A stretch of 64,000 nt of DNA from an uncultured Bacillales bacterium (GCA_947302535.1 CAMYVX010000001.1:64705-128704); one strand, 5' to 3'. Shown: positions 1 to 16,279, counted from the stretch's first letter. Notes: generated by a model from the letters alone, not told the origin. A program made the numbers and translations.

Positions 1-21
1 GATTTCAAGGAATCCAATGTT

Positions 22-216
22 ATGGAGCACCCAAACAAAATAGTGGAGTTTATTAATAATTATAACGATAGGATTAATTGCAAAAACAAAGAACAGTCAT
101 ATGTTATCTATAGATATTTTTCTACAGTAGTGTATGTGGCAATCGCATATGCCAATGGTCTAACAAGAGAAATCGATAACTATGAGAATGTATATTCGTT
201 TTTTAAAGGAAAATAA
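22..216 (+). CDS. hypothetical small protein (64 aa); possibly an immunity or orphan cassette partner of the downstream ORF
   Basis: Complete ORF with no recognisable domain. It is tightly followed by ORF 235..492 on the same strand. Confidence 0.3.
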   Translation: MEHPNKIVEFINNYNDRINCKNKEQSYVIYRYFSTVVYVAIAYANGLTREIDNYENVYSFFKGK

Positions 217-234
217 AGAAAGGAGGGAACTTGC

Positions 235-492
235 ATGCCAAAATATCCAAATAGGATTGTGACGAACAGAAAGTCGCCATCAAATGAAGCTGATTTGATT
301 AATGCTTATAAAGAATTAAACCCTAGAGCTTGTCGAAGAGACAGTCTTGACATTGCTGCCGTTAGAGCAAAAGACGGAACTCCAGGTCATGCTCTACTGA
401 ACCAAAGCATTAACAGAAGCAAGGATAGAGATAACCACATTGGTCAAAACTTTATCCCAGACAAAGAACTCAAAAAACAGATTAAAAAATAG
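235..492 (+). CDS. hypothetical small protein (85 aa) with a His/Asn-rich stretch resembling an HNH-type nuclease tip; possibly an orphan toxin C-terminal module
   Basis: A GGAGGG Shine-Dalgarno sits 8 nt upstream. The segment GHALLNQSINRSKDRDNH loosely matches an H-N-H pattern. The ORF is followed by a rho-independent terminator. Confidence 0.35.
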   Translation: MPKYPNRIVTNRKSPSNEADLINAYKELNPRACRRDSLDIAAVRAKDGTPGHALLNQSINRSKDRDNHIGQNFIPDKELKKQIKK

Positions 493-523
493 AACGGAGA
501 GTAATATATGAGTTCATTCTAAT

Positions 524-557
524 TAAGCAAGTTGCATTATTGTGGCTTGCTTTTTTT
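524..557 (+). terminator. rho-independent terminator
   Basis: Stem AAGCAAG (524-530) pairs with CTTGCTT (546-552) and is followed by a T7 run. Confidence 0.5.
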
Positions 558-711
558 ATGAACACTGGGATTTTTAAAGTCTGTTAGTAATCTTCTTATC
601 TATCACATCCATTATTATTAATTTTTATACTGTATGAATTGGTATAGTCGGACAAGTTTTTGCTCTAAAGGCATATTTCATACTATTATCAGTGTATTTA
701 ACAATTAACAC

Positions 712-733
712 ACTATATTATTGATAATATAGT
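712..733. repeat. perfect 10-bp-arm inverted repeat ACTATATTAT-TG-ATAATATAGT in a convergent intergenic region
   Basis: Read directly from the sequence. Each arm is the exact reverse complement of the other. Confidence 0.5.
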
Positions 734-878
734 ATATAGGCTTAACACACCTCTAATTGGAATTGTTACAGTAGGAATAATTTTATATTTTTAAAAAATA
801 GGGATTATTACAGTCTGTGAAAGACATCCATATACTTGGCTAATTATACAATTATTGTTTATATTTTGTTGCTGATAA

Positions 879-2552
879 TTACAAATTATATGAAATAGTC
901 AATGCGGGCTGCACACACGAACCATTGAATCCAACATAGTCGTTATTTAGTGTTCCGTTTTTATTGTTTCTAGAAGCACATGAACCATTGTTTTCATCTG
1001 TTTCTATTGGCGATCTTGTCCAACAATAACCAGTATGTGGTTTATCTACATCAGTAGAGTATTGCGCAGCATTTGCTCTAGCGTAATCTGTTGTTAAAAA
1101 TCTACGAGCAGGTGTAGCATTTGCTCCTGGGAATCCGTATTTGCTATCTGAATAATCTTTATAACTTAATAGTGTGACCTTATCGAAAGTATTTTCGCAT
1201 TCAAATCCGCTTTCTGGAGTAGCGGTACTAGAGGCGGAGTTATCTACTTCCATTGTTTGGATATTTTCTTTATTAAAGACAAATGTATTGTTATAGAAGC
1301 TATCATTTAGCCAGCTTCGTACTTCGCTATATTTGTAGTTATTTGGCATGATGGTTTTACCATCTATTTCTCTAGGACCACCGAAGTGGTAGCGTCTTAC
1401 TTCAATGAGTTTCTCGCTTAATAAGAAATAACTACTATCTTCGTTTTCAAGTACTCTCCAAGAGAGTGGTTCGACCTTAAACCAATATTCATTATCTTCA
1501 ATGATTTCATCGCCATTATCAAAATTACGGAGTGGTAAGGTTTCACCTGTTTCCATATCTTTTGCTATTTTAGCTTTTCTCTTCGCGTAGTATTCATGGT
1601 TGTAATAATAGTAACCATCAATCGTGGTTAATTCAGAGCTATTTAATTTATTAATTAAATCCTCGTCATTGACATTACTTTGTGGGTACATACCATATTT
1701 AACATATTTATTACTATCACCATAAATGGATGGTACTACACCGTGTTCTAAGTTCCACTCATGTTCTTCTTCGTCGTTCATGTAATGGGAATTAATGTAT
1801 GTAATATCATCTTTTAAAGTAAATGTATATTCTGTGTCTTCTGAGAGAAGATTATCTTCATTGTCATACCAACCAGTAAACAAATGATATTTCTTATCAG
1901 TAGGGATATTTTTAACTGTTACTTTGTTGATATCTTCTTCATCACCATAAACATAAATAGTACCTTTAGATTCATCTTCACTGTTGATGATTAGTCCATC
2001 AATCCATCTGGCAGTTAAGACTAAGTTACCAGTCATACCTTTTTTAATGGAGTCGACTCTATTGCCATCTTGGGAGAACCAACCCGCAAAGATATTAGCG
2101 AATTTCACTGGTCTAATTAATTCAAACTCACTATTGATGTTATATGAGGTTGGATATGTTTCTGTTGGGGCTTCTCCACCAAGGAAACGATATTCAATCG
2201 TGTACGTATCATAATCCCAAGTTGTTTTTAATGTCATATCACTTTTAACTGTATATGAATCAAATAACCAAGGCTTATCTTCATATAGCCATTCATCAAC
2301 ATGATATCCACGTTTAATTGGATCTTCTGGCTTAGTGATTTTATCACCTTCATTAACTGTGATATCAGCAATAGGTGTTCCACCTTGAGTATCAAATGAT
2401 ACAGTATAAGTAGTGGTAACAACATCTTCTGGCTCATCATCTTTACTGCCACCTGAACTCTTATTTGTGCCAGTAGCAAAAGCAATAATCCCGATGGTTA
2501 TTGATGTTATTAATAACGAAGATATAACAATAATTAGTTTTTTCTTATCCAT
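879..2552 (-). CDS. membrane-anchored surface protein with Listeria-Bacteroides (Flg_new-type) repeat domains and a Cys-containing C-terminal domain
   Basis: N-terminal transmembrane/signal segment LIIVISSLLITSITIGIIAF. Repeat segments such as YTVSFDTQGGTPIAD...GYHVDEWLY and YTIEYRFLGG...FAGWFSQDGNRV fit the F/Y-x-G-W consensus of Listeria-Bacteroides repeats. Confidence 0.65.
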   Translation of the reverse strand: MDKKKLIIVISSLLITSITIGIIAFATGTNKSSGGSKDDEPEDVVTTTYTVSFDTQGGTPIADITVNEGDKITKPEDPIKRGYHVDEWLYEDKPWLFDSYTVKSDMTLKTTWDYDTYTIEYRFLGGEAPTETYPTSYNINSEFELIRPVKFANIFAGWFSQDGNRVDSIKKGMTGNLVLTARWIDGLIINSEDESKGTIYVYGDEEDINKVTVKNIPTDKKYHLFTGWYDNEDNLLSEDTEYTFTLKDDITYINSHYMNDEEEHEWNLEHGVVPSIYGDSNKYVKYGMYPQSNVNDEDLINKLNSSELTTIDGYYYYNHEYYAKRKAKIAKDMETGETLPLRNFDNGDEIIEDNEYWFKVEPLSWRVLENEDSSYFLLSEKLIEVRRYHFGGPREIDGKTIMPNNYKYSEVRSWLNDSFYNNTFVFNKENIQTMEVDNSASSTATPESGFECENTFDKVTLLSYKDYSDSKYGFPGANATPARRFLTTDYARANAAQYSTDVDKPHTGYCWTRSPIETDENNGSCASRNNKNGTLNNDYVGFNGSCVQPALTISYNL

Positions 2553-2618
2553 AATTGTTGTCTATTATACATAAGATAATATAATTTTCAATTATTAAAA
2601 GACATTTTGCTTATCGGC

Positions 2619-3428
2619 TCAATAAATTTCAAGATAGTTACTTTTAAATGTTTTCTGTAGAACAACATCTCCTTTATATCTTGGATTAGAGATAACGCCA
2701 TCATACATTCTGGTTCTAAAGGTTTTAGAAAAGTTTAATGATGCAAAATCTCTTCTCATAAATCTATCAACATCATGCATCTTGATATTAGACACAAAGA
2801 GCATAAATACTGTCCTAATAGCGATAGCTTCTGGTTCATAGATGTAAATCTTAACAAAGCTATCTTTTCTAAATCCTAATATTGGTCTAACTCTTTTAGA
2901 GATATTTCCCGATTCCATTCTTTCATGGATACCAGAGGAAACACGAACCGACTGTTGACGAGATTCTTCCTGCGCTAGAGCGGAATACATGGTTAGCATG
3001 AAATCTAGTTTTGAATTGGAAGCATATAATTCATCAGTTTCAAAGTATACTTCAACACCCAGATTTCTTAATTCGTATATCGCTTGAAGAGTGTTTATCG
3101 TATTTCTACCAAACCTGGACATTTGCTTAACCAAGATAGGATCAATGAGTCCTTCTCAACATTTATCCATCATGTCTTGAAATTCTTCTCTTTTATCTAT
3201 GGATGTACCAGATTCAGTATCCGCAAATATTCCTACAAATTCCCGCGTGTTCTTCTTGAATATTCTTTTATATCTTCCAATTTGAGCATTAAAAGATTCT
3301 AGTTGTTCCTCACTATCAGTGGACACTCTAACATAGGCACAGACTCTTAATTTATGTTCTGGACTGGCTTCTTTTATTAATTCTTTTTCCAACTTCTTAG
3401 TCACTGGAATTATTGTCTTTTTTACCAT
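2619..3428 (-). pseudogene. large serine recombinase (resolvase/invertase family), disrupted by an in-frame stop and truncated C-terminally
   Basis: The N-terminal fragment (3156..3428) contains the catalytic-serine region YVRVSTDSEEQ. The second fragment (2619..3134) carries resolvase motifs (RFGRNT, LRNLGVEVYF) and the start of the recombinase domain. The two fragments are separated by a stop at about 3153. The combined length of about 260 aa falls well short of the 450-550 aa expected. Confidence 0.7.
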
Positions 3429-3597
3429 AGATACCTATAACAGGCATTTTGTATTTCTTTCTTAGAAGAATTATAGCTTCGGCCATCTCAAAAACATCGA
3501 TAACTCCCTTATCGCATAATTCTTCTAAGATATAAAGGCAGATGTTATATTCATATGGAAGTTTTTTATCTAGGATAACCTTGTCTTTATTGTGCAT
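3397..3597 (-). CDS. small hypothetical protein (66 aa), paralog A of a duplicated small ORF
   Basis: About 55% identical to ORF 8158..8394 (DKKLPYEYNICLYILEELCDKGVIDVFEMAEAIILLRKKY versus DKNQPYEYNIAIIILGELSNEGIIDIFDIAEALIKLRKLY). Its 3' end overlaps the recombinase start. Confidence 0.5.
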   Translation of the reverse strand: MHNKDKVILDKKLPYEYNICLYILEELCDKGVIDVFEMAEAIILLRKKYKMPVIGIYGKKDNNSSD

Positions 3598-3676
3598 AGT
3601 GGTGCCCGTTCCTTATGTGTCTATAAATCCATCAAAAAAGAGAGAAGTGCAAGTTGTTTTCAAGTATAATAAAAAC

Positions 3677-4894
3677 ATGAACGATAAATTAGATATTTAT
3701 TTTAGCAAAGTGTTTTGCCGCATGAGACATAAGACTCAACTCTTTAATGGTGCGGCTGATGATCATTATCACACTAGACTTCAGCACACAATCGAAGTTG
3801 AAGAGATTGCTTTAAAAATGGCTAAAAAGTTAATGTATGATAACTCTGCTATTAAATGCGACTTATCGAAAGTATCAAAAATAGCGCTCCTTCATGATAT
3901 CGGTCATACTCCTTTCGGTCATGCTGGTGAAAGAGCTTTGCATGAGATTATTTCTGGGCAATGCTGCAAAGAACATAATCTTCCAGATTTTAATAAATTA
4001 GGAGTTATTATTGGTTTCAAACATAATATTAATTCCGGACTTCTTTACATAGAAAGCGTCAAATTTGATAATGTCGATTTCGATATTCTTGACGGCATTG
4101 TTAGACACACAAAACTTTATTATGAAAATCAACAAGATTTGGATTACGGTTTTAAATACATTTTTCATGAACGCAAAGAATATTATGATAATAAAGGGCC
4201 GAAGACCTTAGAGGGTTTTATAGTTGCTTATGCAGATGAAATTGCCCAAATATGTTCTGATTATTTAGATATTTGTTTAGATAGCCAATCAAAAGGGCTT
4301 GTTCCAATTTCATTTAAATCCAGGCCGTTCACAAACCTTAGTGTTTCTTCTTCTGAAAAAAGAGTCGAGGCAAAAGCGGCTTGCGATTATTTGATTGATT
4401 TGTTTGCTGATTGTTTCAAACAAACCGATTCATTTTCGAAATTCAATGATAATGAATTCCTTAGTGTTTTAGATGAATTTGATGAGGCAAGAAAGAATTA
4501 TATTAAATCCAACAAATCCATCATTAAATATGATGATGAAAAATCAAAATTGATTAAATCTCTTTTTGCGTTTTATTACAATAATCCTGATGAAATTACA
4601 AACGATTTCTTTGATGACTTTGTATATAGATCTAGAAGAATAGAATATGAGACAAAGTTAGTTCTAAATGATGTTTCATTTCATACAGCAAACAAAAAGG
4701 AAACAATTAAATTTATTGAAAGAGTTTATTCAATTATTTCTGAACAAATAAGTGGCGAGCAACTAACTAATAACAACATTAAAGATTATAGAAACGTTTT
4801 TAAGTTGTATTTAAGAAGTTTGGCAGTTTTTATTTCAAAGATGACAGATAATTATGCGGAACACAAGTTTAGTAAAACACTTGACATTAAATAA
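3677..4894 (+). CDS. dGTPase-family (dNTP triphosphohydrolase) HD-domain phosphohydrolase
   Basis: RMRHKTQLF matches the dGTPase N-terminal motif (FRRLQxKTQV). The HD motifs are H..HTIEVEEIA and LLHDIGHTPFGH. I place the start at the internal ATG 3677, not at ORF start 3542, because the longer version would overlap the divergent small ORF. Confidence 0.8.
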   Translation: MNDKLDIYFSKVFCRMRHKTQLFNGAADDHYHTRLQHTIEVEEIALKMAKKLMYDNSAIKCDLSKVSKIALLHDIGHTPFGHAGERALHEIISGQCCKEHNLPDFNKLGVIIGFKHNINSGLLYIESVKFDNVDFDILDGIVRHTKLYYENQQDLDYGFKYIFHERKEYYDNKGPKTLEGFIVAYADEIAQICSDYLDICLDSQSKGLVPISFKSRPFTNLSVSSSEKRVEAKAACDYLIDLFADCFKQTDSFSKFNDNEFLSVLDEFDEARKNYIKSNKSIIKYDDEKSKLIKSLFAFYYNNPDEITNDFFDDFVYRSRRIEYETKLVLNDVSFHTANKKETIKFIERVYSIISEQISGEQLTNNNIKDYRNVFKLYLRSLAVFISKMTDNYAEHKFSKTLDIK

Positions 4895-4948
4895 CATTCA
4901 TCTATAATTTAGATATCAAAAGAGAAGAACTTAATTGTTCTGCAAATG

Positions 4949-4975
4949 AATCTCAGCAATGAGATTTTTTGTTTT
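4949..4975 (+). terminator. rho-independent terminator downstream of the HD gene
   Basis: AATCTCA-GCAA-TGAGATT hairpin followed by TTTTTTGTTTT. Confidence 0.55.
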
Positions 4976-5179
4976 CCATTTAGTTTGACCCATTAAAAAA
5001 TAAACCCCAATAAAACAGTATTTTACAGAATAATAAAAACAAACGGAGTTGAATGATTGCTTTATAAATGATATTTCGAGAATTTAAAGCAATAGATTTT
5101 AGTAGTAACTCTGGACAATTTCATTCCTATTGTAACTCCACTAATTGTCTTTATTATTGCCTAGCAATATACTTTATTT

Positions 5180-7888
5180 ATGAGAAGTTTGAAACTAGAT
5201 GCTAGACAATATATTAAAAACGCCAATGATAATATCGAAAGCAATATAGATTTATTATGTCCTAACCACATAGGTTTATGTGCTCAAAACATATTGGGCC
5301 AATCAAGAAACCTATTGGATGGATTCGCCCTTCTACAATATGGTATAGATTATCCAACTTCCAATATTGACAATGCCTTGAAATTGATTCAAGAGGCTCA
5401 AAAACATTTGACACAAAAAGGCAAGAATTATCGTTGCTTTGTAGACTTGTATTCCTTTTTGCAAGTTTCTGCCTCACATTATACTCAAAACATTTTTGAT
5501 TCTGAATCACTTTTACTGAAGTACTCCGACTATTTATTTGATATTAGAGAATCCGCTAAAACATTATTTGATATTGATATTTTAAGCAACCTCGAAGATT
5601 TTCCATTTTCAAACAAGGAAGATGAAGAATATTATCGTTCCATCAAAGATGTTCTATTAGAGGGCGATGGTGGTGAAAGCACCATCGATCACACATATTA
5701 TATAGAGAGAAGAGTAAGAAGAAGATTCGGTATATACGAATATGTTCTTTCGCCCGCAAACGACAAAAGAACTAAATTTGATCGTTTAACAGCTTTCTCA
5801 TTAACAAAAATCAATGATTCTCATTCTATTAAATGCCGATTTGCCAAAAAGAAATTGATTCACAACGGAATAACAATTCAAATCGTTAAAATTGTTGATT
5901 GGTCGATTTCAATAAGACCATGTGAAATTCAAAAGTTGGCGTTTATTCAGCATCTGGATTTCAAAATCAATAGAAATACATCTGGATATATGCCACTTAT
6001 GGATGCACTAACCGCAAATAATTGCAGTTTGTATGATTTTATTATTTCTCCTTCGTTTGAAAGCGATATTAATGAATTGCTTTTGGATAAAGATAATAAA
6101 ATACGTCGCTTTTTGGAAGAAACACGAAAAAACATTAACACAGATAAAGTTGGTAGTAAGACTTTAAAATATCTTCTCTTTATTTGCTTACATAACATCA
6201 TAAAATATCAAATCATTCGCGATCCAGAAAAACAATTGGGTTATTATAGTTTGAATAATAGGTGCTACGCCTTTGATTCTCACCCATTCTCATTATCACT
6301 CATAAATCATAATCCAAAGTTAAGCGATTTATTAGACTGTTTGCCAGAATACTGCACAAATGAAGAACTACTTAAAAGAACAATTGTTATAAATACAGAA
6401 GATAGAAAGATGCTTTATACACCAGTGAAAGAACTGGATAAGGCATTCAACACTCTTGATTATGCTAAGGAATTTAACAAAATGCTAGTTGAAAAAACAA
6501 AGGGCTTGGCAATTGAATTTTTCAACAACTATGCTTATATCAAGTCTTACGAAGAACATACTATTTCAATTTTAAATGCCTTAATTGCAAAAAGAAGGAT
6601 TGTTGACCCTGACTATGAATCGGTGGCACTGCCCTATATTTCAAGTCTTCGTGATAATGAAATAGATAATGAAAAGATTGATATTCTCAAAAAAGGCTTT
6701 ACAGATTCATCGGTGTTATTAATTAATGGTGCAGCTGGAACCGGCAAGACAACACTAATTAAACATTTTTCCAATATTTTTAAAGATAAGAAAATCTTAT
6801 ACCTATCATGCACTAACTCTTCGGTTCAAAATCTTCAAATTAAAGTTGGCAAATCAGATAATAGAACTTTCATGACTCTTGAGAGATTTAGAAAGAAGAT
6901 GAATACGGGTGGTAACTTTAATTATTCTATTTTAATCGTTGATGAATGTTCTATGGTGGAGAACGAGGCTTTTGATTTTGTTCTAAAGAACATGGATTTT
7001 GAAAAAATGTTGCTCGTAGGTGATGAAAGACAAATCGAATCTATCAAGTTCGGAAACTGGTTCGGTATCGTTAATTCATTGTTAGATTGCGGTTGCGAAT
7101 TAACGTTTACTCACAGGACCACCGACAAAAATTTACAAACTATTTGGGATGCCGTTAGAGAATTAGAACAGCAGGATAGACTTTATGAGAGAATAATTAA
7201 TGCCGGATATCATCATCAATTTGATAGTGATTTATTTATCCCTAAGAGTTCTGATGAAATAATACTTTGTTTAAATTATGATGGTCTTTACGGCATTAAC
7301 AACATTAATAGATATCTCCAAGAAAGCAATCCTAATAGGGCTGTTTCTTGGAAAGTTTGGACTTTTAAAGTGGGTGATAGGGTATTATTTAATGAAAGCT
7401 ATTACTTTAGAGATTATTTTTATAACAATCAAAAAGGCATAATTGAAAGCATCGAAGATGATGATTACTCGGTGACATTTGTTGTATATGTTAATAGTGA
7501 ACCAACCAATAATCACAGTTGTTCTTCTCATGTGCGTTGGATTAAAGAAGAAGATGAAAAAGATTATTACTCAATAAGAATTGATAAGGATGATGACGAT
7601 GACGAAGAAGATAATTCTACAAAAGTATTGGTTGTCCCATTTCAACTTGGGTATGCAATTTCAATTCACAAATCACAAGGTCTTGAGTATGATTCTGTGA
7701 AAGTCATTATGACCAAAGAAGTTGAAGAACAAGTAACACACAACGTGTTTTATACTGCGATTACAAGAGCAAAGAAATTTCTTTCTATTTATTGCGATAA
7801 AGAATCCTTGTCTAGGATTATCAATTCTTTTGAAAAGCAGACCACCAAAAACGACGCTGAAATAATAAAGCGAAAATATAATCTTTAA
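5180..7888 (+). CDS. SF1B RecD/Pif1-like DNA helicase (AAA_30 + UvrD_C_2 type) with an uncharacterised ~430-aa N-terminal region
   Basis: Walker A LLINGAAGTGKTT. Motif II ILIVDECSMV. Motif III LLVGDERQIES. Motif V AISIHKSQGLEYDSV. Motif VI YTAITRAKKFLSIY. The N-terminal 430 aa has no motif I recognise. There is an acidic insertion DKDDDDDEEDNS. Confidence 0.75.
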   Translation: MRSLKLDARQYIKNANDNIESNIDLLCPNHIGLCAQNILGQSRNLLDGFALLQYGIDYPTSNIDNALKLIQEAQKHLTQKGKNYRCFVDLYSFLQVSASHYTQNIFDSESLLLKYSDYLFDIRESAKTLFDIDILSNLEDFPFSNKEDEEYYRSIKDVLLEGDGGESTIDHTYYIERRVRRRFGIYEYVLSPANDKRTKFDRLTAFSLTKINDSHSIKCRFAKKKLIHNGITIQIVKIVDWSISIRPCEIQKLAFIQHLDFKINRNTSGYMPLMDALTANNCSLYDFIISPSFESDINELLLDKDNKIRRFLEETRKNINTDKVGSKTLKYLLFICLHNIIKYQIIRDPEKQLGYYSLNNRCYAFDSHPFSLSLINHNPKLSDLLDCLPEYCTNEELLKRTIVINTEDRKMLYTPVKELDKAFNTLDYAKEFNKMLVEKTKGLAIEFFNNYAYIKSYEEHTISILNALIAKRRIVDPDYESVALPYISSLRDNEIDNEKIDILKKGFTDSSVLLINGAAGTGKTTLIKHFSNIFKDKKILYLSCTNSSVQNLQIKVGKSDNRTFMTLERFRKKMNTGGNFNYSILIVDECSMVENEAFDFVLKNMDFEKMLLVGDERQIESIKFGNWFGIVNSLLDCGCELTFTHRTTDKNLQTIWDAVRELEQQDRLYERIINAGYHHQFDSDLFIPKSSDEIILCLNYDGLYGINNINRYLQESNPNRAVSWKVWTFKVGDRVLFNESYYFRDYFYNNQKGIIESIEDDDYSVTFVVYVNSEPTNNHSCSSHVRWIKEEDEKDYYSIRIDKDDDDDEEDNSTKVLVVPFQLGYAISIHKSQGLEYDSVKVIMTKEVEEQVTHNVFYTAITRAKKFLSIYCDKESLSRIINSFEKQTTKNDAEIIKRKYNL

Positions 7889-8157
7889 AAAACAGATAAA
7901 ACAACAACATAATTACAGCATTAATTCTTAAAAGAGGAATAGTGGCTAAAGGCAATCATAAAGTTTTAGCGACTTATGTTATTCACTGTAATAGTAAGAA
8001 CTCTAATAAATCTAAATTAGTTAAATCTATGTATCGTGTATATCATGAATCGCAAGGATTTAATTGGCCAAAGAGTTGGATATATGTATTTAGGATATGC
8101 ATTATATAGCGAGAAAAAACATAGGGATGTCAGATAGATTATAAAAACGACATATGG

Positions 8158-8394
8158 CTAGTGTTTGTCATAGAGTTTACTTATGGTTTGTAGCTGACAT
8201 AGACAAACACTCGCCGAGATATTTATAAATGGGAGATTATATAGTTTCCTTAATTTAATAAGAGCTTCCGCTATATCGAAAATATCTATTATTCCTTCAT
8301 TAGATAGTTCACCAAGTATGATTATGGCTATGTTGTATTCATATGGCTGATTCTTATCGATTACGAATCTATTTTTCTCTCTTTGCTTTCCCAT
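8158..8394 (-). CDS. small hypothetical protein (78 aa), paralog B of the duplicated small ORF
   Basis: Paralogous to 3397..3597. It is divergently oriented 61 bp from the STAND gene. No recombinase ORF lies downstream of it. Confidence 0.5.
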   Translation of the reverse strand: MGKQREKNRFVIDKNQPYEYNIAIIILGELSNEGIIDIFDIAEALIKLRKLYNLPFINISASVCLCQLQTISKLYDKH

Positions 8395-8455
8395 ATGTCT
8401 ATAAGTTGATCAAAAAGAAAAGTAATTCAAGTCATTTTGAAATATAATTATTAGC

Positions 8456-11400
8456 ATGAGCGAAGCGACCCAAAACGCACTTAAAGGTTATGGCTTCCAA
8501 ATGGAAGTTGCTATCTTATTTTGTTTTTTAATGGAGTTTTATCCAAATTCGTTTGATTATCTAAAATGCGAAATTGGAGATGAAGTGGAACATAATTTTG
8601 ATGACATTATTTTAAAGTCCAAAACCAAATCATATTTTATTCAAGTGAAAAATTATTCTTCAAAAACCGAAAAAGCATTTTACGAAGATGGTTACATCAT
8701 ATATTGTGGTCAAAAAATAAAATTGTCGAAAACAGACATAAATGTTTTTGTGTGTAATTCTATCTATTGTGATAACGAAAATATAAAAAAAGACTTTTAT
8801 GGTCTGCAAGCTAGTTATATTGAAGAAGGAAATGTCTACATCATATATTTATCGCCAGACCAAATTGAATCTTTTAAGAACGATAATTGTATTAACGATT
8901 TCAGAAGAAGACAATTAGATTCATTTTTTAGCGCCAAAATATTAAACTCAGAAAGAATAAATATAACCGATTTGCCTAAATTTGAATTGTATTGCAATGA
9001 GTTGGCTGAACAAACAATTAAAGTTAGAGAGTTTATTAAAAAACCGGACGAAAATGTTTTGTTTATTGTTGCGCCACCCGGTTATGGAAAAAGCCATTTT
9101 GCAAACGAGATTGAATTGCCTAAAAAGATTATTTATAGATTTTGGATTTCACAAGCAGATAATAATTTCACAGATAGACTAAAATATAGCCACTTCCTTG
9201 AACAGCTTTCTTATTCTGTAGATAATGGTGAACATCGTAAAAAGGATTTGAGGACCATTATAGAAACACTGTCCTTTAATGGACAAACACTTATTTTGGA
9301 TGGGCTTGATCATGTGTTTACGTATAATCAGCTAGAAGTCAATAAATACATAGATTTTATTAATGAATGTTCGAAGAAAAATACAATCAATCTTATTGTT
9401 TTAACAAGGCCATTAACCAATACATTTTATAAAAAGTATAAAGTGTTGTTCTTACAGAACTGGACAAAAGATGAATGTTCTGCATACTGCAGATATTTTA
9501 AGATAAACAGAGAAGGGCAAGAGAAAATTTATAATATTTCTAATGGCTATCCAATAATCGTACATTATTTATGCGAGGAATACCTTAAGAAAAAAGGCCG
9601 CCTTTCTATTGAAGGAAAAATCGATGGGTTAGATGATTATTATGAAAAAATTCTCTCAGTTGGCGGTTTTGATTCTAATTTAAACAGACTTAGATTAATT
9701 GCATCAATCACCCCTTTTCTTCATCTGAACGACCTGGAACTTTTGTATGACGGCTTTATTGCAAATCAACTTGCATCACTGATTGGTGATTTTCCTCATT
9801 TAGTTTCATGCAGTAATAAAAGAGTTTTCTTTTATCATGAATCTATTTACCAATACATATTATCTAACACAGATATTTCTTATTTTGATGAAATACACGA
9901 GAAAATTTTTAGCTTATTGCTTTCCGGCGATGTTACATTCATGTCGAGAATTTCTTTGTCTCTTTTCAGCAAAGGACAAGTGAAGAAACTGATTAAAAAA
10001 TATTCTAATTTAGATTTCTTCAAAAGTTTATTTGATAAAACGTTTGATTTTGAATCGATAAAAGTTTTTTATAGAAAAATAATGGATGAACTGAGCACTT
10101 TCAAAAGTGCCCCGATTGATATTTTTTGTATATATAATTTGGTATTAATACTTCTTCTTTTGAGTAGGAATTGCTATGAAGATAACAAAAATTTGGTTTT
10201 CCAATTATTTACACAATTAGAGAACAACAATAACAAATGGGAAAATTATGTGTTTAGTAGTGGGGCATTATTTAATGTTTTTTCAGAGATTAAATCTATA
10301 CCATTTTTAGAAAGAGACCCAACTGATATCTTTATTTTGAATGACGGAGATTTGCCTATTGAGGAAATGATTGAACAGGAGAACAAATATTTTAATGTTC
10401 TTAATTTTGATTATAGAAAACCAACATCTAATTATCTTGAACTGAATAAAACATATCCAGATTCAAATGTTTTGGCTGAATACTTTGTTTCTGGATACAT
10501 CCATGAGACAGATTCTATTTGCAAAACAATCATAAACGAGTACGAAAATGGATATAGCAACTATTATATTGCTCATAAAGTGTTAAATTCACTTAGCTTT
10601 ATAGATTATAAAACAGATACATTTCCTATTACTTTTGCATTAAGCAAGGCTCTTGATAGATTAAGATGTTTGGGAATTAAGCAAGGCATCGCTGAATATG
10701 ACACAATTTCTAGTTTTCTTCTGTCGCATAAAGATTTGAATACATTCGACATGTATAATGATTTGAATGGTTATATTAGATATTCAAACAAGATTGGTAG
10801 AAAACTTAATTTATGTGAAATAGCCCCTTATTTGTTGATGATGGATGCACACAAAGATCAAACTATCAGTTATGTTCCTGAAACTATGGCATTATATGTT
10901 AAGCATGGCGTTTTTACTATTGATGAATGTCGTCGATATCTTTCTAAAATATATTCTCTAATCGATAGTGGGAATAAATCGGCAGCTACAAATTTTATAA
11001 ATGAGTTAGGGCAAGAATATGTTGATGAGCTCATGTCTAATGGTTTTTTTGATACAGATTCGTTTTATATTTTTTACTCTAGTCTTAGCAAAAATATCCT
11101 TAACAAATTGCCATTTAATTATGTTTTGAATTACGCAATGGACTATTATTTGCGCTATCCTCAATCAAGAACTTATGTCACTAATGAAGAATTAGGAAAT
11201 ATCCTTAAATGTAAGCACATGAAAAAAATTAGACAGATGTTTTATGCGGATGGTATTGAAATAAAGTACACTTCATATGCAAAATCACAAAAGCGCGATT
11301 TTACAAAAAAACAGCTTGAAAAAGATTGGTATTTTAGAGATGGTTGTCTTGAACTATACAAAAAATATGATTTCTCTATAGAACAAATGGCTAGGTTATA

Positions 11401-11656
11401 CGATGGATGGGGTTTTAAATTATTTGATCCAAGTATCTTTTCTATCTTTGATGATGATATCGTGCGCTCTAATATAGAAAGAATTATTTTTATCGGCTTT
11501 ACCGAGAAAAAGGATATTTTCTATAAATATTTCCAATATAATGCAACACTTATCTACACGATTCCGATGTTTTATCATTTATATTGCAAAGATTTTAACT
11601 ATAAAAAAGCAGGTAAAATTTTTAAAAATTTCTTAGACATTATTCTTAGAATTTAA
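8456..11656 (+). CDS. STAND/NACHT-type P-loop NTPase (antiviral-STAND / bNACHT-like) with an N-terminal PD-(D/E)xK-like (DUF4297-like) nuclease domain
   Basis: Walker A FIVAPPGYGKSHF. NACHT-style Walker B LILDGLDHV. The N-terminal ~150 aa contains GYGFQMEVAI...FDDIIL...IQVK, consistent with a restriction-endonuclease-like fold. The C-terminal ~600 aa is a long helical region. Confidence 0.65.
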   Translation: MSEATQNALKGYGFQMEVAILFCFLMEFYPNSFDYLKCEIGDEVEHNFDDIILKSKTKSYFIQVKNYSSKTEKAFYEDGYIIYCGQKIKLSKTDINVFVCNSIYCDNENIKKDFYGLQASYIEEGNVYIIYLSPDQIESFKNDNCINDFRRRQLDSFFSAKILNSERINITDLPKFELYCNELAEQTIKVREFIKKPDENVLFIVAPPGYGKSHFANEIELPKKIIYRFWISQADNNFTDRLKYSHFLEQLSYSVDNGEHRKKDLRTIIETLSFNGQTLILDGLDHVFTYNQLEVNKYIDFINECSKKNTINLIVLTRPLTNTFYKKYKVLFLQNWTKDECSAYCRYFKINREGQEKIYNISNGYPIIVHYLCEEYLKKKGRLSIEGKIDGLDDYYEKILSVGGFDSNLNRLRLIASITPFLHLNDLELLYDGFIANQLASLIGDFPHLVSCSNKRVFFYHESIYQYILSNTDISYFDEIHEKIFSLLLSGDVTFMSRISLSLFSKGQVKKLIKKYSNLDFFKSLFDKTFDFESIKVFYRKIMDELSTFKSAPIDIFCIYNLVLILLLLSRNCYEDNKNLVFQLFTQLENNNNKWENYVFSSGALFNVFSEIKSIPFLERDPTDIFILNDGDLPIEEMIEQENKYFNVLNFDYRKPTSNYLELNKTYPDSNVLAEYFVSGYIHETDSICKTIINEYENGYSNYYIAHKVLNSLSFIDYKTDTFPITFALSKALDRLRCLGIKQGIAEYDTISSFLLSHKDLNTFDMYNDLNGYIRYSNKIGRKLNLCEIAPYLLMMDAHKDQTISYVPETMALYVKHGVFTIDECRRYLSKIYSLIDSGNKSAATNFINELGQEYVDELMSNGFFDTDSFYIFYSSLSKNILNKLPFNYVLNYAMDYYLRYPQSRTYVTNEELGNILKCKHMKKIRQMFYADGIEIKYTSYAKSQKRDFTKKQLEKDWYFRDGCLELYKKYDFSIEQMARLYDGWGFKLFDPSIFSIFDDDIVRSNIERIIFIGFTEKKDIFYKYFQYNATLIYTIPMFYHLYCKDFNYKKAGKIFKNFLDIILRI

Positions 11657-11888
11657 TTGCATTAATACAGTCGAAAACTTTTTTTGAGACAAAATCTTTG
11701 TATTTATTCAGTCGGTGAAAGACAAAAATGAAAAGATTAGTTTCTAATATCAATGCATATAATCAAAAGCCACACCCTTTTCTTAATTCAACTGTAACAG
11801 TATGACGTTTGACATACTAAAACCACAAATTGAAACTTAGTGTGACAAAAAAGTTGATTTTGGCACATCAATAAATTATCATTTAAGC

Positions 11889-13079
11889 ATGAAATACGAT
11901 TCTGTTGAAAAGCAATTTCATAAATTAACAAAAGAACAATTTGATGAATGGTTTGATAAAAGGTTTAATTCAAACACCACATATCATTTTGATATTGAAA
12001 TTGGCAAATCACCTGCTTTCTTTTGTTTTGATATCCCTTTATTCAATAAAATTCTTGAGATTCAGCAAAAGAATGACCAATTAAATAATTTATTTAATAA
12101 TTTGCCTCTTATTGCAAGCCAACAATATATTAGAAATTCTCTTGTTGTTGATGTTAAAAAAACAAACGAAATAGAAGGAGTGTTTTCTTCTAGAAAAGAG
12201 ATCTTTGAGTTAACTGAAGATCTTAAAAAAAGGAAATCAAATAAGATAGGATCTATTGTTAACAAATATCTATTACTGCTCAACGGAAAAAGCGAAAAGA
12301 AAATTTCCAGTTGTGAAGATATCAGAAAGATTTATAACGAATTATTTATATATGGTGATGAATCTTTGATTGACCCAGATAAATGGCCTGATGGCAAGCT
12401 GTTTAGAAAGGATTATGTTGGAGTTTATGATGCCGGCAATGATGAACCTATCCATAATGGCATAGTGCCTGAAGAAAAAATAATTAAGTATTTAGATGTT
12501 GCGGTTTCAATTTTGAATAACCAAGACATCAATGCATTTGTCCGTATATCTTTGTTTCATTATATTTTTGAATACGCCCATCCATTTTATGATGGTAACG
12601 GAAGAATAGGTAGATATTTAGTATCGATGTTTGTTAAAAACAAAATAAGTAGTATCTTTGCTTTTAGAATTTCATCAGGAATCAATAACTATAAGAACAA
12701 GTATTATAAAGCATTCAAAGACACAGAGGGTGTTTTGAATAAAGGCGACTTAACTCTATTTGTTTATGAATTCCTGGATATCTTGGATAAAACCTATGAT
12801 GATTGTATTGATTACGCAAAATCTAAAAAGAAAGAGCTTGAGGACAAATATAATGACCTTAAAGCTAAAATGCCTAGATTAAGTAAAAACGAAGACAATG
12901 TTTTGTATGTGTTAACGCAGGCTACTATTTTTTCCGATTTTGGTATAACCATTCAAGAGATACAATCAACATTAAAAATCAGTGTGAGAACTATTAGACG
13001 TTGTATTAATACGTTTAAAGAAAAGTCCATTTTAACTGAAAAAAGGCTTTCTAAAAAAATGCTGTATTCCTTGGTTTAG
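11889..13079 (+). CDS. Fic/Doc-family protein (AMPylation-type Fic domain)
   Basis: Canonical Fic motif HPFYDGNGRIGR. The C-terminal region is wHTH-like. Confidence 0.8.
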   Translation: MKYDSVEKQFHKLTKEQFDEWFDKRFNSNTTYHFDIEIGKSPAFFCFDIPLFNKILEIQQKNDQLNNLFNNLPLIASQQYIRNSLVVDVKKTNEIEGVFSSRKEIFELTEDLKKRKSNKIGSIVNKYLLLLNGKSEKKISSCEDIRKIYNELFIYGDESLIDPDKWPDGKLFRKDYVGVYDAGNDEPIHNGIVPEEKIIKYLDVAVSILNNQDINAFVRISLFHYIFEYAHPFYDGNGRIGRYLVSMFVKNKISSIFAFRISSGINNYKNKYYKAFKDTEGVLNKGDLTLFVYEFLDILDKTYDDCIDYAKSKKKELEDKYNDLKAKMPRLSKNEDNVLYVLTQATIFSDFGITIQEIQSTLKISVRTIRRCINTFKEKSILTEKRLSKKMLYSLV

Positions 13080-13122
13080 AGTGTTTTATTTGAGGATATT
13101 ATTCGGTTGCATTAAATACCAA

Positions 13123-13911
13123 TTAATACACATATTCAAATGAAGCATATGGATGTTCTATATCCATCAATACTTTATTTTTCTTTTTAAGTGTATATCT
13201 TATCTTCACACATGGACACTCATGTATAAATCTAGTCATATTACCTTTAGTGGGTGCTTTTAGAGCATGACCGTTAAAGTCATCTATATTTATATCTAAT
13301 ATGTATTTACCTTTTTTGATAATAATATGATTTTGACTTATAAGTTTTGCTTTAGCAAAGTTATAAGTACCAAATCTATATTCTTTATTATTATGTTCAA
13401 TTAGACAGGTTACCCCTGTTATCTTAAATAATGCTAATGGTATCGTGGCTACCGCTAGTGTGATACTAGCTTCTTTATTAATAGCATTTAGCCATAGATA
13501 ATTCTTAGGAAAGTTTCTCCCTTTATCACCTTCTATGTATCCATTACCATTAGCGAAGTCTATTTCATTACCATTAATAGTGATACTTCCACTTAACTCA
13601 TGATACATAGAATATATTTGATGCTTACATTCAATAGGTAGGTACCTATAGTAAGACATAATATCTTTCCTATTCTTTAATAGTGGCCCATATTTAATCT
13701 CACCAGTAATTATCAAATCATCTTGATGAACATTAAAAGATATACCTTTAAAAGATATTTCTATTTGTGATAAATCTTTTAATAAATACGATCCATCATT
13801 GGCGATGATTTGTATCATCTTGCCTTCATTACTAATAGAATCAATTATTGCGACCATATCACCATTAATTGATTGATGCTTATAGTAAATACCAAAGAAT
13901 TTGTTTTTCAT
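13123..13911 (-). CDS. hypothetical protein (about 262 aa from the internal Met; ORF extends to 13989)
   Basis: Long ORF with coding-like composition. The motif YIEGDKGRNFPKNYLWLNA weakly resembles tocopherol-cyclase/CrtC-like proteins. I could not reach a confident family assignment. Confidence 0.45.
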   Translation of the reverse strand: MKNKFFGIYYKHQSINGDMVAIIDSISNEGKMIQIIANDGSYLLKDLSQIEISFKGISFNVHQDDLIITGEIKYGPLLKNRKDIMSYYRYLPIECKHQIYSMYHELSGSITINGNEIDFANGNGYIEGDKGRNFPKNYLWLNAINKEASITLAVATIPLALFKITGVTCLIEHNNKEYRFGTYNFAKAKLISQNHIIIKKGKYILDINIDDFNGHALKAPTKGNMTRFIHECPCVKIRYTLKKKNKVLMDIEHPYASFEYVY

Positions 13912-14048
13912 AATAATCAGTTTAAATGATTTGAAAACATCAATAAAGAAGAAACACGAATAATCTAATGGTGAACGATTGAAACACAAGATATTTGCTA
14001 TTATTTTTTTGTTCGTATATAATACGATAGCAAAAAGAGAGTATTATT

Positions 14049-15257
14049 ATGGTTATTTCAGTAGCAGGTACAGGATATGTTGGATTAAGTAACGCGATTA
14101 TATTAGCCCAACACAATAAAGTTTATGCCGTAGATGTAGTTCCATCTAAGATTGATTTAATTAACAACAAAAAGTCTCCAATCATCGATAAAGAAATTGA
14201 AGAATATTTGGCAACTAAAAAGTTAGACCTTACTGCTACATTAGATGGTGATAAAGCCTATAAAGATAGCGAACTAATCATCATTGCCACTCCTACAAAC
14301 TATGATAGCGCTACTAACAAATTTGACACATCCTCTGTTGAATCAGTTATTGAACAAGTGAAAAGAGTTAATCCTAATGCTTGGATTATTGTTAAATCAA
14401 CAGTGGGTGTTGGTTTTACCAAATATGCTAGAGAAAAACATAATTATGATAAAATCCTTTTCTCTCCTGAATTCTTGAGAGAAGGGAAAGCATTATATGA
14501 TAATCTTTACCCATCAAGAATAGTGGTGGGTGTTCCTGAAAAGAAAGAACCATATTTATCTAAAGCCAAAGAATTCGCAACTTTGTTACAACAAGGTGCG
14601 ATTAAAGAAAATATAGAAACCCATATCTTAGGATGTACAGAAGCAGAAGCTGTTAAGTTATTCGCTAATACATATCTTGCCTTAAGAGTGGCTTATTTCA
14701 ATGAATTAGATACATTTGCTCAATTAAAGGGTTTAGATACTTTGGATATCATTAAAGGTGTATCTGCCGATCCACGTATTGGAGACTTCTATAACAATCC
14801 ATCCTTTGGTTATGGTGGATATTGTTTACCTAAAGACACCAAAGAGTTAAAAGCTAACTTCGAAGATGTTCCAGAGAACTTAATATCCGCGATTGTGGAA
14901 TCTAATAGAACAAGAAAAGACTTTATTGCTGATAGAGTACTTCAACTTGCTGGATATAAGAACGATGGTAAAGATAATGTTACTGTTGGTATCTATAGAT
15001 TAACCATGAAATCCGGTAGTGATAACTTTAGACAATCGTCTATCCAAGGCGTTATGAAGAGATTACAAGCTAAAGGTGTAAAGATTGTTATCTATGAACC
15101 AACACTTAAAGATGAAGAATTCTTTAACTCTAAAGTTATTAAAGACTTTAATGAATTTAAGAAAGTATCTAAAGTCATTATTGCTAATAGATACGATGCA
15201 TCTTTGGATGATGTTAAAGATAAAGTCTATACAAGAGATTTATTAAGAAGAGATTAA
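14049..15257 (+). CDS. ugd: UDP-glucose 6-dehydrogenase
   Basis: N-terminal Rossmann motif [12 protein letters not shown]. Catalytic Cys motif GGYCLPKD. Lies adjacent to a UDP-glucuronate epimerase. Confidence 0.9.
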
Positions 15258-15259
15258 TT

Positions 15260-16279
15260 ATGAAGATATTGGTTACAGGCGCTGCTGGCTTTATAGGTTC
15301 TTTTCTTTGCAAAAGACTTTTAAGTAGCACTCAAGATGAAATTATAGGTATAGATAATGTTAATGATTATTACGCTGTTTCTTTAAAAGAAGCACGCTTA
15401 GAAATGCTTAAACCATTTAATAAGTTTAAGTTCATCAAAGGCGATATTTCAGATAAGCCATTCATTGATAAAATGTTTGATGAATATAGATTTGATATAG
15501 TGGTTAATTTGGCTGCTCAAGCAGGTGTTAGATATTCAATTGATCATCCAGATGTCTATATCCAATCTAATATTATTGGCTTCTATAACATCTTAGAAGC
15601 CTGTAGATACCATCCTGTTAAGCATCTGGTTTATGCTTCAAGTTCATCTGTTTATGGTGGTAACACCAAAGTTCCATTTAGCACCGATGATAAAGTAGAT
15701 AATCCAGTGAGTTTATATGCTGCGACAAAGAAATCTAATGAATTATTAGCCCACGCTTATAGTAAACTATACAATATTCCTTCAACAGGATTGCGTTTCT
15801 TTACTGTTTATGGACCAATGGGTAGACCCGATATGGCCTACTTTAGCTTTACTAATAAACTCATTAAAGGTGAAACTATTGAGATATTTAACTACGGTAA
15901 TTGTAAAAGAGACTTTACCTATGTAGATGATATAGTTGAGGGCATTATTAAAGTTATGAATAAAGCCCCAACTAAAAAAGATGGAGAGGATGGATTACCA
16001 ATCCCTCCATATAAGGTTTATAACATAGGTAATAACAACCCTGAAAATCTTTTAGATTTTGTACAAATATTATCTGAAGAACTCGTAAGAGCGGGTGTGC
16101 TTCCAAAAGACTATGATTTTGAGGCGCATAAAAAGTTAGTACCAATGCAAAAAGGCGATGTACCTATTACATATGCCGATACAAGTGATTTAGAAAGGGA
16201 TTTTGGCTATAAACCATCTACAAGTCTTAGAGATGGATTAAGACGATTTGCTCAGTGGTATAAACAATACTACAAATGA
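15260..16279 (+). CDS. NAD-dependent epimerase, probable UDP-glucuronate 4-epimerase
   Basis: KILVTGAAGFIGS. The SDR Ser motif YASSSSVYG and the YxxxK motif YAATKKSNE. Positioned immediately after ugd. Confidence 0.8.
   Translation: MKILVTGAAGFIGSFLCKRLLSSTQDEIIGIDNVNDYYAVSLKEARLEMLKPFNKFKFIKGDISDKPFIDKMFDEYRFDIVVNLAAQAGVRYSIDHPDVYIQSNIIGFYNILEACRYHPVKHLVYASSSSVYGGNTKVPFSTDDKVDNPVSLYAATKKSNELLAHAYSKLYNIPSTGLRFFTVYGPMGRPDMAYFSFTNKLIKGETIEIFNYGNCKRDFTYVDDIVEGIIKVMNKAPTKKDGEDGLPIPPYKVYNIGNNNPENLLDFVQILSEELVRAGVLPKDYDFEAHKKLVPMQKGDVPITYADTSDLERDFGYKPSTSLRDGLRRFAQWYKQYYK

Follow-up and report, generated by a model that had tools for sequence, protein, structure and literature searches.

An unannotated small-protein family as candidate partner of a clade of large serine recombinases in defence islands of rumen Bacilli

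Two related small open reading frames (ORFs) were noticed in a 64,000-nucleotide stretch of DNA from an uncultured Bacillales bacterium (GCA_947302535.1, CAMYVX010000001.1:64705-128704; hereafter, the window), where each lies in front of a divergent, defence-like gene. Small ORF A (3397..3597, minus strand, 66 aa) represents one lineage, A, and has retained its reading frame; small ORF B (8158..8394, minus strand, 78 aa) represents a second lineage, B. Comparison with related loci suggests that both derive from a two-gene module, in which the small gene precedes and overlaps the gene of a large serine recombinase (LSR), and that the small protein probably acts on or with this LSR and not on the neighbouring defence genes. 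All evidence comes from sequence comparison of metagenome-assembled genomes (MAGs) and metagenome contigs. This comparison establishes homology, synteny, co-divergence, the pattern of decay and the sharp end of the module; as to function, the small protein would most likely be an accessory of the LSR.

The homology of the two ORFs is clear. BLASTP aligned them with 28 of 53 residues identical, 41 of 53 positive and no gaps (E=3e-20), in line with the claim of a sequence-only reading of the window that two minus-strand ORFs share about 55% identity over their first ~50 residues; a low-complexity origin of this similarity can be set aside, as neither ORF is of low complexity. The divergent spacing of 61-79 bp given in the same reading is also correct, with 79 nt between the start of ORF A at 3597 and the ATG of an HD-domain gene at 3677, and 61 nt between the start of ORF B at 8394 and the ATG of a 1066-aa gene at 8456. 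Aligning the upstream regions, as had been proposed there, we found that the DNA similarity reaches through a leader of ~60 nt located 5′ of both start codons. Pattern and profile searches located only these two copies in the 64-kb window. Copy A has ~90-92% nucleotide identity to more than 20 other loci, whereas copies A and B share only ~67% of their DNA, and the small ORFs and LSRs of the two lineages are each ~59% identical. Given this identity of only ~67%, A and B are best seen as two independent acquisitions, not as a duplication in place. The idea of tandem related cassettes therefore stands in part: two related units of small gene and serine recombinase do adjoin defence-like genes, but local duplication does not account for them, each being closer to other loci than to its neighbour. 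The cargo need not be a portion of the same mobile unit: the conserved part comprises leader, small ORF and LSR only, and both flanks vary.

Related loci (numbered below with the prefix L) were collected with a ~235-nt profile of leader and ORF and by tblastn with an intact LSR; metagenome loci were picked by the pattern of the small ORF/LSR junction, which biases this set towards copies keeping the LSR start. The pair was found in many MAGs of rumen or gut Bacilli and Erysipelotrichaceae and in metagenome contigs, so that the search for the small ORF beside serine recombinases in other genomes, proposed in the sequence-only reading, gave a positive result. The module consists of the ~60-nt leader and the small ORF (~235 nt), followed in intact relatives by an overlapping gene for an LSR of 555-563 aa; the whole unit of leader, 66-69-aa protein and LSR spans ~1.95 kb and has sharp ends. 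Small ORF and LSR overlap by 32-35 nt. In the window, the last 32 nt of ORF A overlap the LSR start, whose ATG (3426-3428) lies within ...TATGGTAAAAAAG..., and in L049 an ATGA overlap is present instead. Intact LSRs have the Resolvase, Recombinase and Zn_ribbon_recom architecture: PF00239 was detected at 7e-28 in the homologue from L040 (LSR at 2421-4100, small ORF at 4069-4269), and the intact relatives with ~90% nucleotide identity (559-563 aa) carry PF07508 and PF13408. At the far end (LSR 3′ sequence ...AATATTCAATTRT), conservation is lost ~10-40 nt short of the LSR stop codon, and the final residues vary from locus to locus. Because conservation stops at both its ends, the ~1.95-kb unit alone is constant. 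Both ends are sharp. No flanking repeats or dyad-symmetric sites could be assigned to the unit as att sites; the att-like direct repeats suggested by the sequence-only reading were searched for around the units and not found. Terminal inverted repeats between the unit ends were unconvincing, amounting to a single 7-nt match, TTGAATA.

A run of seven A residues (3418-3424, GGTAAAAAAG) is located at LSR codons 3-4, inside the overlap with the small ORF, and is likely a hotspot of slippage or indels. A fusion of the two proteins by programmed frameshifting at this tract was considered and rejected, the LSR being read at +1 with respect to the small ORF and L049 showing a plain ATGA overlap.

The order of the two genes is common to four lineages, one of which is a prophage with the LSR convergent to holin and tail genes. 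Divergence of the two partners is roughly parallel, with small-ORF/LSR identities of 59/59, 37/37, 46/30, 37/39, 44/34 and 41/32%. Seven loci have a complete module with a full-length LSR behind it, and each of the seven keeps an intact small ORF. In IMG/VR, a DNA pattern gave three chance matches without the module and a protein-pattern scan gave none; in a phage collection, the small ORF had no matches and the LSR reached only ~30% identity to phage integrases.

Neither small ORF has a match in Pfam, NCBIfam, PADLOC or PHROGs. A word-index search of a large protein collection returned 70 unnamed relatives of 42-131 aa, which share a common core (roughly VIDKNQPYEYNIAIxILxELCxEGIIDIFDxxEALIKLRKLYNLPVIDI) and differ in their tails, and in an exhaustive HMMER scan, 1.84 billion representatives yielded 59 proteins, all of 103 aa or less and none fused to other domains. 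Four remote members (33-45% identity) keep D10, Y17, G31, I33, L45-R46-K47, Y49, P52 and the C-terminal tail, and their hydrophobic pattern is conserved across lineages whose DNA is barely alignable. Judged by this conservation, the small ORF is a genuine gene, and its product falls into no annotated family. AlphaFold2 modelled the protein as a two-helix hairpin (helices 15-29 and 35-48, pLDDT 81). Structure searches with the hairpin model gave generic matches only, a sequence search of the PDB with the small ORF only chance matches. We found no match of the small ORF to winged-helix, helix-turn-helix (HTH) or ribbon-helix-helix (RHH) folds or families, whether of Xis/excisionase proteins or of RHH/HTH regulators; RHH was ruled out specifically, hhalign against CopG and Arc having given nothing. 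SHOCT profiles gave no hit for the family from the window.

A 48-aa helical ORF precedes tandem LSR pairs of an out-group (~40% identity; L059 738-884, L061 3057-3203). Its similarity to SHOCT_2 is weak (E=0.21), as is its similarity to the window family, which is nevertheless in register (pairwise E=0.013, probability 3.5%). As a lead only, this may point to a more general occurrence of small hairpin genes ahead of LSRs.

Towards the cargo, the module ends abruptly. In a comparison of ~31 distinct flanks, the sequences agree at 80-100% as far as CAAGT and at 55-88% over the next six positions (TGTTTT), after which identity falls to background, making this end precise to ~6 nt. Loci differ in the gene that borders the 5′ end of the module, and its orientation is divergent in every case. 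In the window, TATAAT boxes are located at 3665-3670, 6 nt before the ATG of the HD gene, and at 8443-8448, 7 nt before that of the 1066-aa gene, in both cases without a Shine-Dalgarno sequence; among the loci, the TATAAT boxes of cargo genes lie 10-45 nt past the module boundary, many of them 6-7 nt before the ATG. Boxes so close to the ATG suggest leaderless transcripts. A TATAAT-N6-9-ATG spacing was also seen at many cargo genes of related loci. The proposal that the module supplies the cargo promoter is weakened, as the TATAAT of the cargo is positioned outside the conserved block.

The LSRs of both copies in the window are dead. Module A (3430..3664, minus strand; nhmmer score 236) comprises the leader (~3598-3660) and the small-ORF core, and its cargo-side end in the boundary profile is CAAGT (3650-3654) plus TGTTTT. 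The LSR remnant that follows (2631..3428, minus strand) covers the first ~800 nt of a ~1680-nt gene, or ~266 codons; its homology to intact genes ends at 2631, and a nonsense codon is present at 3156-3158, where CGA of the intact relatives has become TGA. The fragments 3156-3428 and 2619-3134 match Resolvase PF00239 (1.2e-8 and 2.5e-12, respectively), so the gene downstream of ORF A does encode a catalytic resolvase domain and the degraded serine recombinase described in the sequence-only reading is real; the full LSR architecture of ~500-600 aa with recombinase domain, zinc beta-ribbon and C-terminal region was not found in this copy. With its internal stop and its end after ~266 codons, this LSR is a pseudogene. 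Module B (8218..8442, minus strand), likewise leader plus small-ORF core (up to ...LPFINI), has 91.6% identity to its counterpart in L001, where an intact 561-aa LSR is present. Its homology ends after ...AATATCT, at a direct joint to a 60-nt hairpin element, HP1, from which the C-terminal 19 residues of ORF B (SASVCLCQL...) are read; copy B is therefore a relic as well. No recombinase is found downstream of it, as had been claimed, but instead the hairpin element and a 3′ fragment of a glycosyltransferase gene. Because both LSRs of the window are dead, both ORFs are relics, and neither copy is likely to be doing the job of an LSR partner now.

The same type of decay is seen elsewhere. Many loci contain 2-5 copies of the module, all on one strand. 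The 5′ end (profile positions 4-14) is preserved in most copies, and the copies without LSR end variously at profile positions 112-238 (at least 15 of them truncated at positions 112-205); since 5′ ends are kept and the 3′ ends of LSR-less copies are scattered, decay would proceed from the recombinase side. In several loci (L004 9518-9935, L007 16038-16460, L025, L026, L028 2083-2384, L042), a conserved mini-cassette of ~300 nt separates a diverged half-module (profile positions 5-112) from the module that follows; this mini-cassette has an ORF of ~50 aa on the cargo strand, which reads through the antisense of the half-module.

HP1 (8156..8215, minus strand, GGCGAGTGTTTGTC...GACAAACACTAGCC), which directly adjoins module B at the latter's 3′ truncation, belongs to a recurrent class of elements. 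It is an imperfect palindrome of 56-61 nt (GGCGAGTGTTTG ... CAAACACGAGCC) with a tandem G-A/A-G mismatch, conserved ends and a centre that varies in length and sequence (~28-33 nt, but 8 nt in a short copy of L010); its helix is 91% paired and includes one fully compensatory change. HP1 recurs 16 times in 11 loci plus the window (among the loci are L002, L003, L007 three times, L008, L010 twice, L013 twice, L016, L030, L033 and L044). At its fixed edge (TCGGCGAG), HP1 invariably meets a truncated module or LSR, whose truncation point varies, and it usually occupies the 3′ flank of a cargo gene. HP1 is unlikely to be an att site of the LSR, given its variable centre; it may be some other recombination site, a deletion hotspot, a terminator or an RNA. 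A second hairpin type has an equivalent role in L002, L008, L009 and L014. Located between cargo operons, always on the cargo strand, is an iteron-like direct-repeat motif, TGGnATTnnTACAGTCGG, with a sharp end, ...AAAGACA. Its short form has two units, as at 11651..11724 (plus strand, 2 x TGnATTnnTnCAGTCG, ending ...GTGAAAGACA), its long form four units around a palindrome, as at 563..829 (plus strand), with a palindromic AT-rich centre including a 22-nt perfect palindrome. Such blocks are also present in L040 (5239-5312 and 7297-7562), three times each in L028 and L007, and in others. Between L040 and L028, the replaced segment extends exactly from the module end to the repeat motif, and the same cassette with a 267-aa gene stands behind the module in L040 and behind the repeat motif in L007. 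The pair L026 and L032 was rejected as proof of a discrete element of recombinase, module and cargo, since their shared block continues into a truncated older module and reflects common ancestry.

Taken together, each small ORF would be the first gene of a two-gene recombination module, with the LSR start inside its end. Such units occur in a prophage and, far more often, in hypervariable anti-phage and cell-surface islands of a polysaccharide-biosynthesis locus, where new units would accumulate one after another in a single orientation and later be eroded, beginning at the recombinase. On this scheme, the LSR of unit A would have been killed by a nonsense codon and 3′ truncation, and unit B would have lost its LSR and the end of its small ORF by deletion, with junction to the hairpin element. 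The conserved synteny and overlap, co-divergence and co-decay, together with the lack of a DNA-binding fold and the promoters of the cargo itself, argue for the role of an LSR accessory. It is possibly a recombination directionality factor. Tiny unannotated directionality factors of LSRs have a precedent in GirX, of 42 aa (PMC5595907); these factors have no common fold, and some are predicted to bind the LSR by helices only (PMC12286644). Another possible role, alternative or additional, lies in translational coupling of LSR synthesis; it does not exclude that of a helical cofactor.

Several observations weigh against this assignment. Three intact LSRs recovered by an LSR-based search have no functional small ORF in cis. 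Two of them, those of L056 and L057, show a precise deletion of the small ORF that joins the leader (...GATTTATAGACATAT) directly to the start codon of the LSR, ATG (L056 9952-10003; L057 about 9940-10003), and in L058 the small ORF is frameshifted and the LSR intact; judging from these three, the small protein is dispensable for an open LSR frame, which would fit an excision-only factor but does not prove one. An intact small ORF of a subtype designated P0036 is present in L057 5.3 kb upstream of the intact LSR, and in L056 an upstream copy of the module spans the full profile. The P0036 subtype (67 aa, 49 member sequences) is itself intact without an adjacent LSR. Constant co-translation with the integrase would be unusual for a directionality factor. 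In the two intergenic regions, scans for sigma-70 promoters and terminators did not rise above chance, and no sigma-70 consensus promoter was found for the operon. Finally, the aligned DNA copies have variable columns in a ratio of 26/19/40 by codon position, an excess at the third, but over the first 18 codons, where the -1 antisense frame is also open and shares third positions, this test is not fully independent.

These last points touch on a second explanation, by which the conserved block is functional DNA (an attachment site, a promoter or an RNA) and the ORF incidental. The non-coding 60-nt leader is indeed conserved too, up to an end sharp to ~6 nt; no Shine-Dalgarno sequence is visible in B-type copies; and the antisense frame is open as described. 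We nevertheless regard this explanation as very unlikely, in view of the excess of third-position changes, conservation at the protein level at 33-45% identity where DNA can barely be aligned, the confident helical model, the frame kept in 7/7 loci with full-length LSR after a complete module, and an Rfam search over positions 1-16000 that found nothing relevant. The sequence-only reading had offered another alternative, that the small protein is a divergently transcribed repressor or activator of the adjacent defence genes. It agrees with the ~31 distinct junctions at which the module abuts the 5′ end of a divergent gene, with the fact that most relic copies retain the leader together with ~100 nt from the start of the ORF, and with the leader sequence TGGATTTATAGACA, which loosely resembles the repeat units between cargo operons. 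A regulator would, however, hardly be destroyed in most LSR-less copies while the cargo persists. The cargo genes are also mutually unrelated and have their own TATAAT outside the conserved block; synteny and co-divergence with the LSR hold beside different neighbours, including those of the prophage, and the fold is not recognisably DNA-binding. A regulatory role of this kind thus appears improbable.

It is also unlikely, if less so, that the module is the platform of a gene-capture system based on a serine recombinase, in which cassettes are inserted one-way at CAAGTTGTTTT, the HP1/HP2 hairpins and the TACAGTCGG repeat blocks are cassette-borne sites and the small protein is an accessory factor. 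Such a system would explain why ~31 unrelated flanks are joined within 6 nt in a single orientation and why L040 and L028 differ exactly between module end and repeat motif; the cassette of the 267-aa gene, shared between the L040 module and the L007 repeat motif, the divergence of the recombinase from the cassettes, and the make-up of HP1 as an imperfect palindrome with conserved ends and variable centre would also suit it. On the other hand, HP1 is limited to the window and 11 loci and does not follow each cargo, an integron-like platform has no need of repeated relic modules in arrays, and no circular cassettes were observed. LSRs, moreover, normally need specific attP/attB pairs, none of which was identified, and the same arrays could arise from deletions combined with homologous recombination among the repeated modules. 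To our knowledge, no integrons have been reported in Firmicutes.

The cargo next to the modules is dominated by genes with links to defence. Adjacent to module A is a dGTPase-like HD protein (3677..4894, plus strand; PADLOC dGTPase 7.9e-32). A longer plus-strand ORF listed for this gene, 3542-4894, begins within the antisense of small ORF A; its frame is open because third-codon positions are common with small ORF A, and the ATG at 3677 is likely the true start. Next comes a RecD-like superfamily 1 helicase (5180..7888, plus strand, 902 aa), which matches the candidate defence family PDC-S53 from end to end (6e-249); a PDC-S53 copy with 68% nucleotide identity occupies the equivalent position in L016. 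Between PDC-S53 and HP1 lies the glycosyltransferase fragment (7928..8109, plus strand), encoding ~60 C-terminal residues of a family-2 enzyme (GT2) whose gene is intact in L015 at 4010-4756; full-length GT2 copies adjoin modules in L009, L015, L026, L029 and L032. The cargo at module B is a P-loop protein (8456..11656, plus strand, 1066 aa) without family assignment, followed by a SoFic-like Fic protein (11889..13079, plus strand; 2e-37).

At related loci, the cargo includes a CBASS cyclase with SAVED effector, AbiH, Tmn/YobI and PifA/KAP NTPases, PDC-S31/DUF2971, DUF4238, Schlafen/AlbA_2 and Fic; surface-related genes (GT2, MBOAT and leucine-rich repeat proteins) also occur at the cargo position. 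With the dGTPase, PDC-S53 and SoFic in the window and variable defence genes in its relatives, the region is an anti-phage defence island. The islands adjoin ugd, epimerase and glycosyltransferase genes of a surface-polysaccharide locus in rumen Bacilli, and at several loci the LSR stop codon is only a few nt away from the 3′ terminus of a gene of this locus.

What would be new here is the small-protein family and the grammar of its junctions; relic integrase modules in a defence island are familiar. An unannotated family that is the constant partner of one LSR clade is a candidate LSR cofactor, and cognate cofactors of LSRs are scarce and useful for reversible genome-engineering tools. In uncultured rumen Bacilli, repeated recombinase modules whose junction with the cargo is nucleotide-precise seem to form the framework of the defence islands, and this makes the swapping of defence genes there approachable. 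For annotation, isolated copies of the ORF would mark dead recombinase units, not regulators.

Among known proteins, the directionality factors of LSRs (GirX, SprB, phiRv1 Xis) are similar in being very small, family-specific and unannotated products of LSR-bearing elements, and LSR binding by helices alone has precedent (PMC12286644). Unlike them, the gene described here overlaps that of the LSR and is presumably co-translated with it, and its product is a candidate factor only. Genes of known directionality factors are generally expressed separately from the integrase. In phage lambda, the small gene xis is located immediately upstream of the integrase gene and overlaps it within one operon; lambda Int is a tyrosine recombinase and Xis a winged-helix, DNA-bending protein. 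The operon layout is alike, whereas the partners here are a serine recombinase and a plain helical hairpin.

Integrons, including the sedentary chromosomal ones that store defence cassettes (bioRxiv 10.1101/2024.07.02.601686), resemble the present islands in the recombinase divergent from a one-orientation cassette array, the precise first junction, the structured imperfect palindromes between some cassettes and a cargo composed mostly of defence genes. The hallmarks of integrons, namely an IntI tyrosine recombinase, attI and an attC per cassette, were not found in these loci: the enzyme is a serine recombinase, cassettes lack an attC after each of them and have their own promoters, and the recombinase module is repeated along the array.

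The closest working likeness is to the staphylococcal cassette chromosome (SCC)-type composite islands, in which Ccr LSRs accompany tandem defence or resistance cargo (PMC11470126), although the loci described here are not members of that group. The window LSR is only distantly related to Ccr, scoring 14-28 bits with the NCBIfam CcrA/B/C models, against cut-offs of 700-900; there is one LSR and not a ccrAB pair, and it has a conserved overlapping small ORF. The site is a polysaccharide locus, with ugd, epimerase and glycosyltransferase genes as neighbours, and not the 3′ end of rlmH, and flanking direct repeats were not found. Common to both are an LSR-borne unit beside variable cargo that includes anti-phage systems, and the arrangement of several units in tandem beside conserved chromosomal genes, with the older units losing their recombinase.

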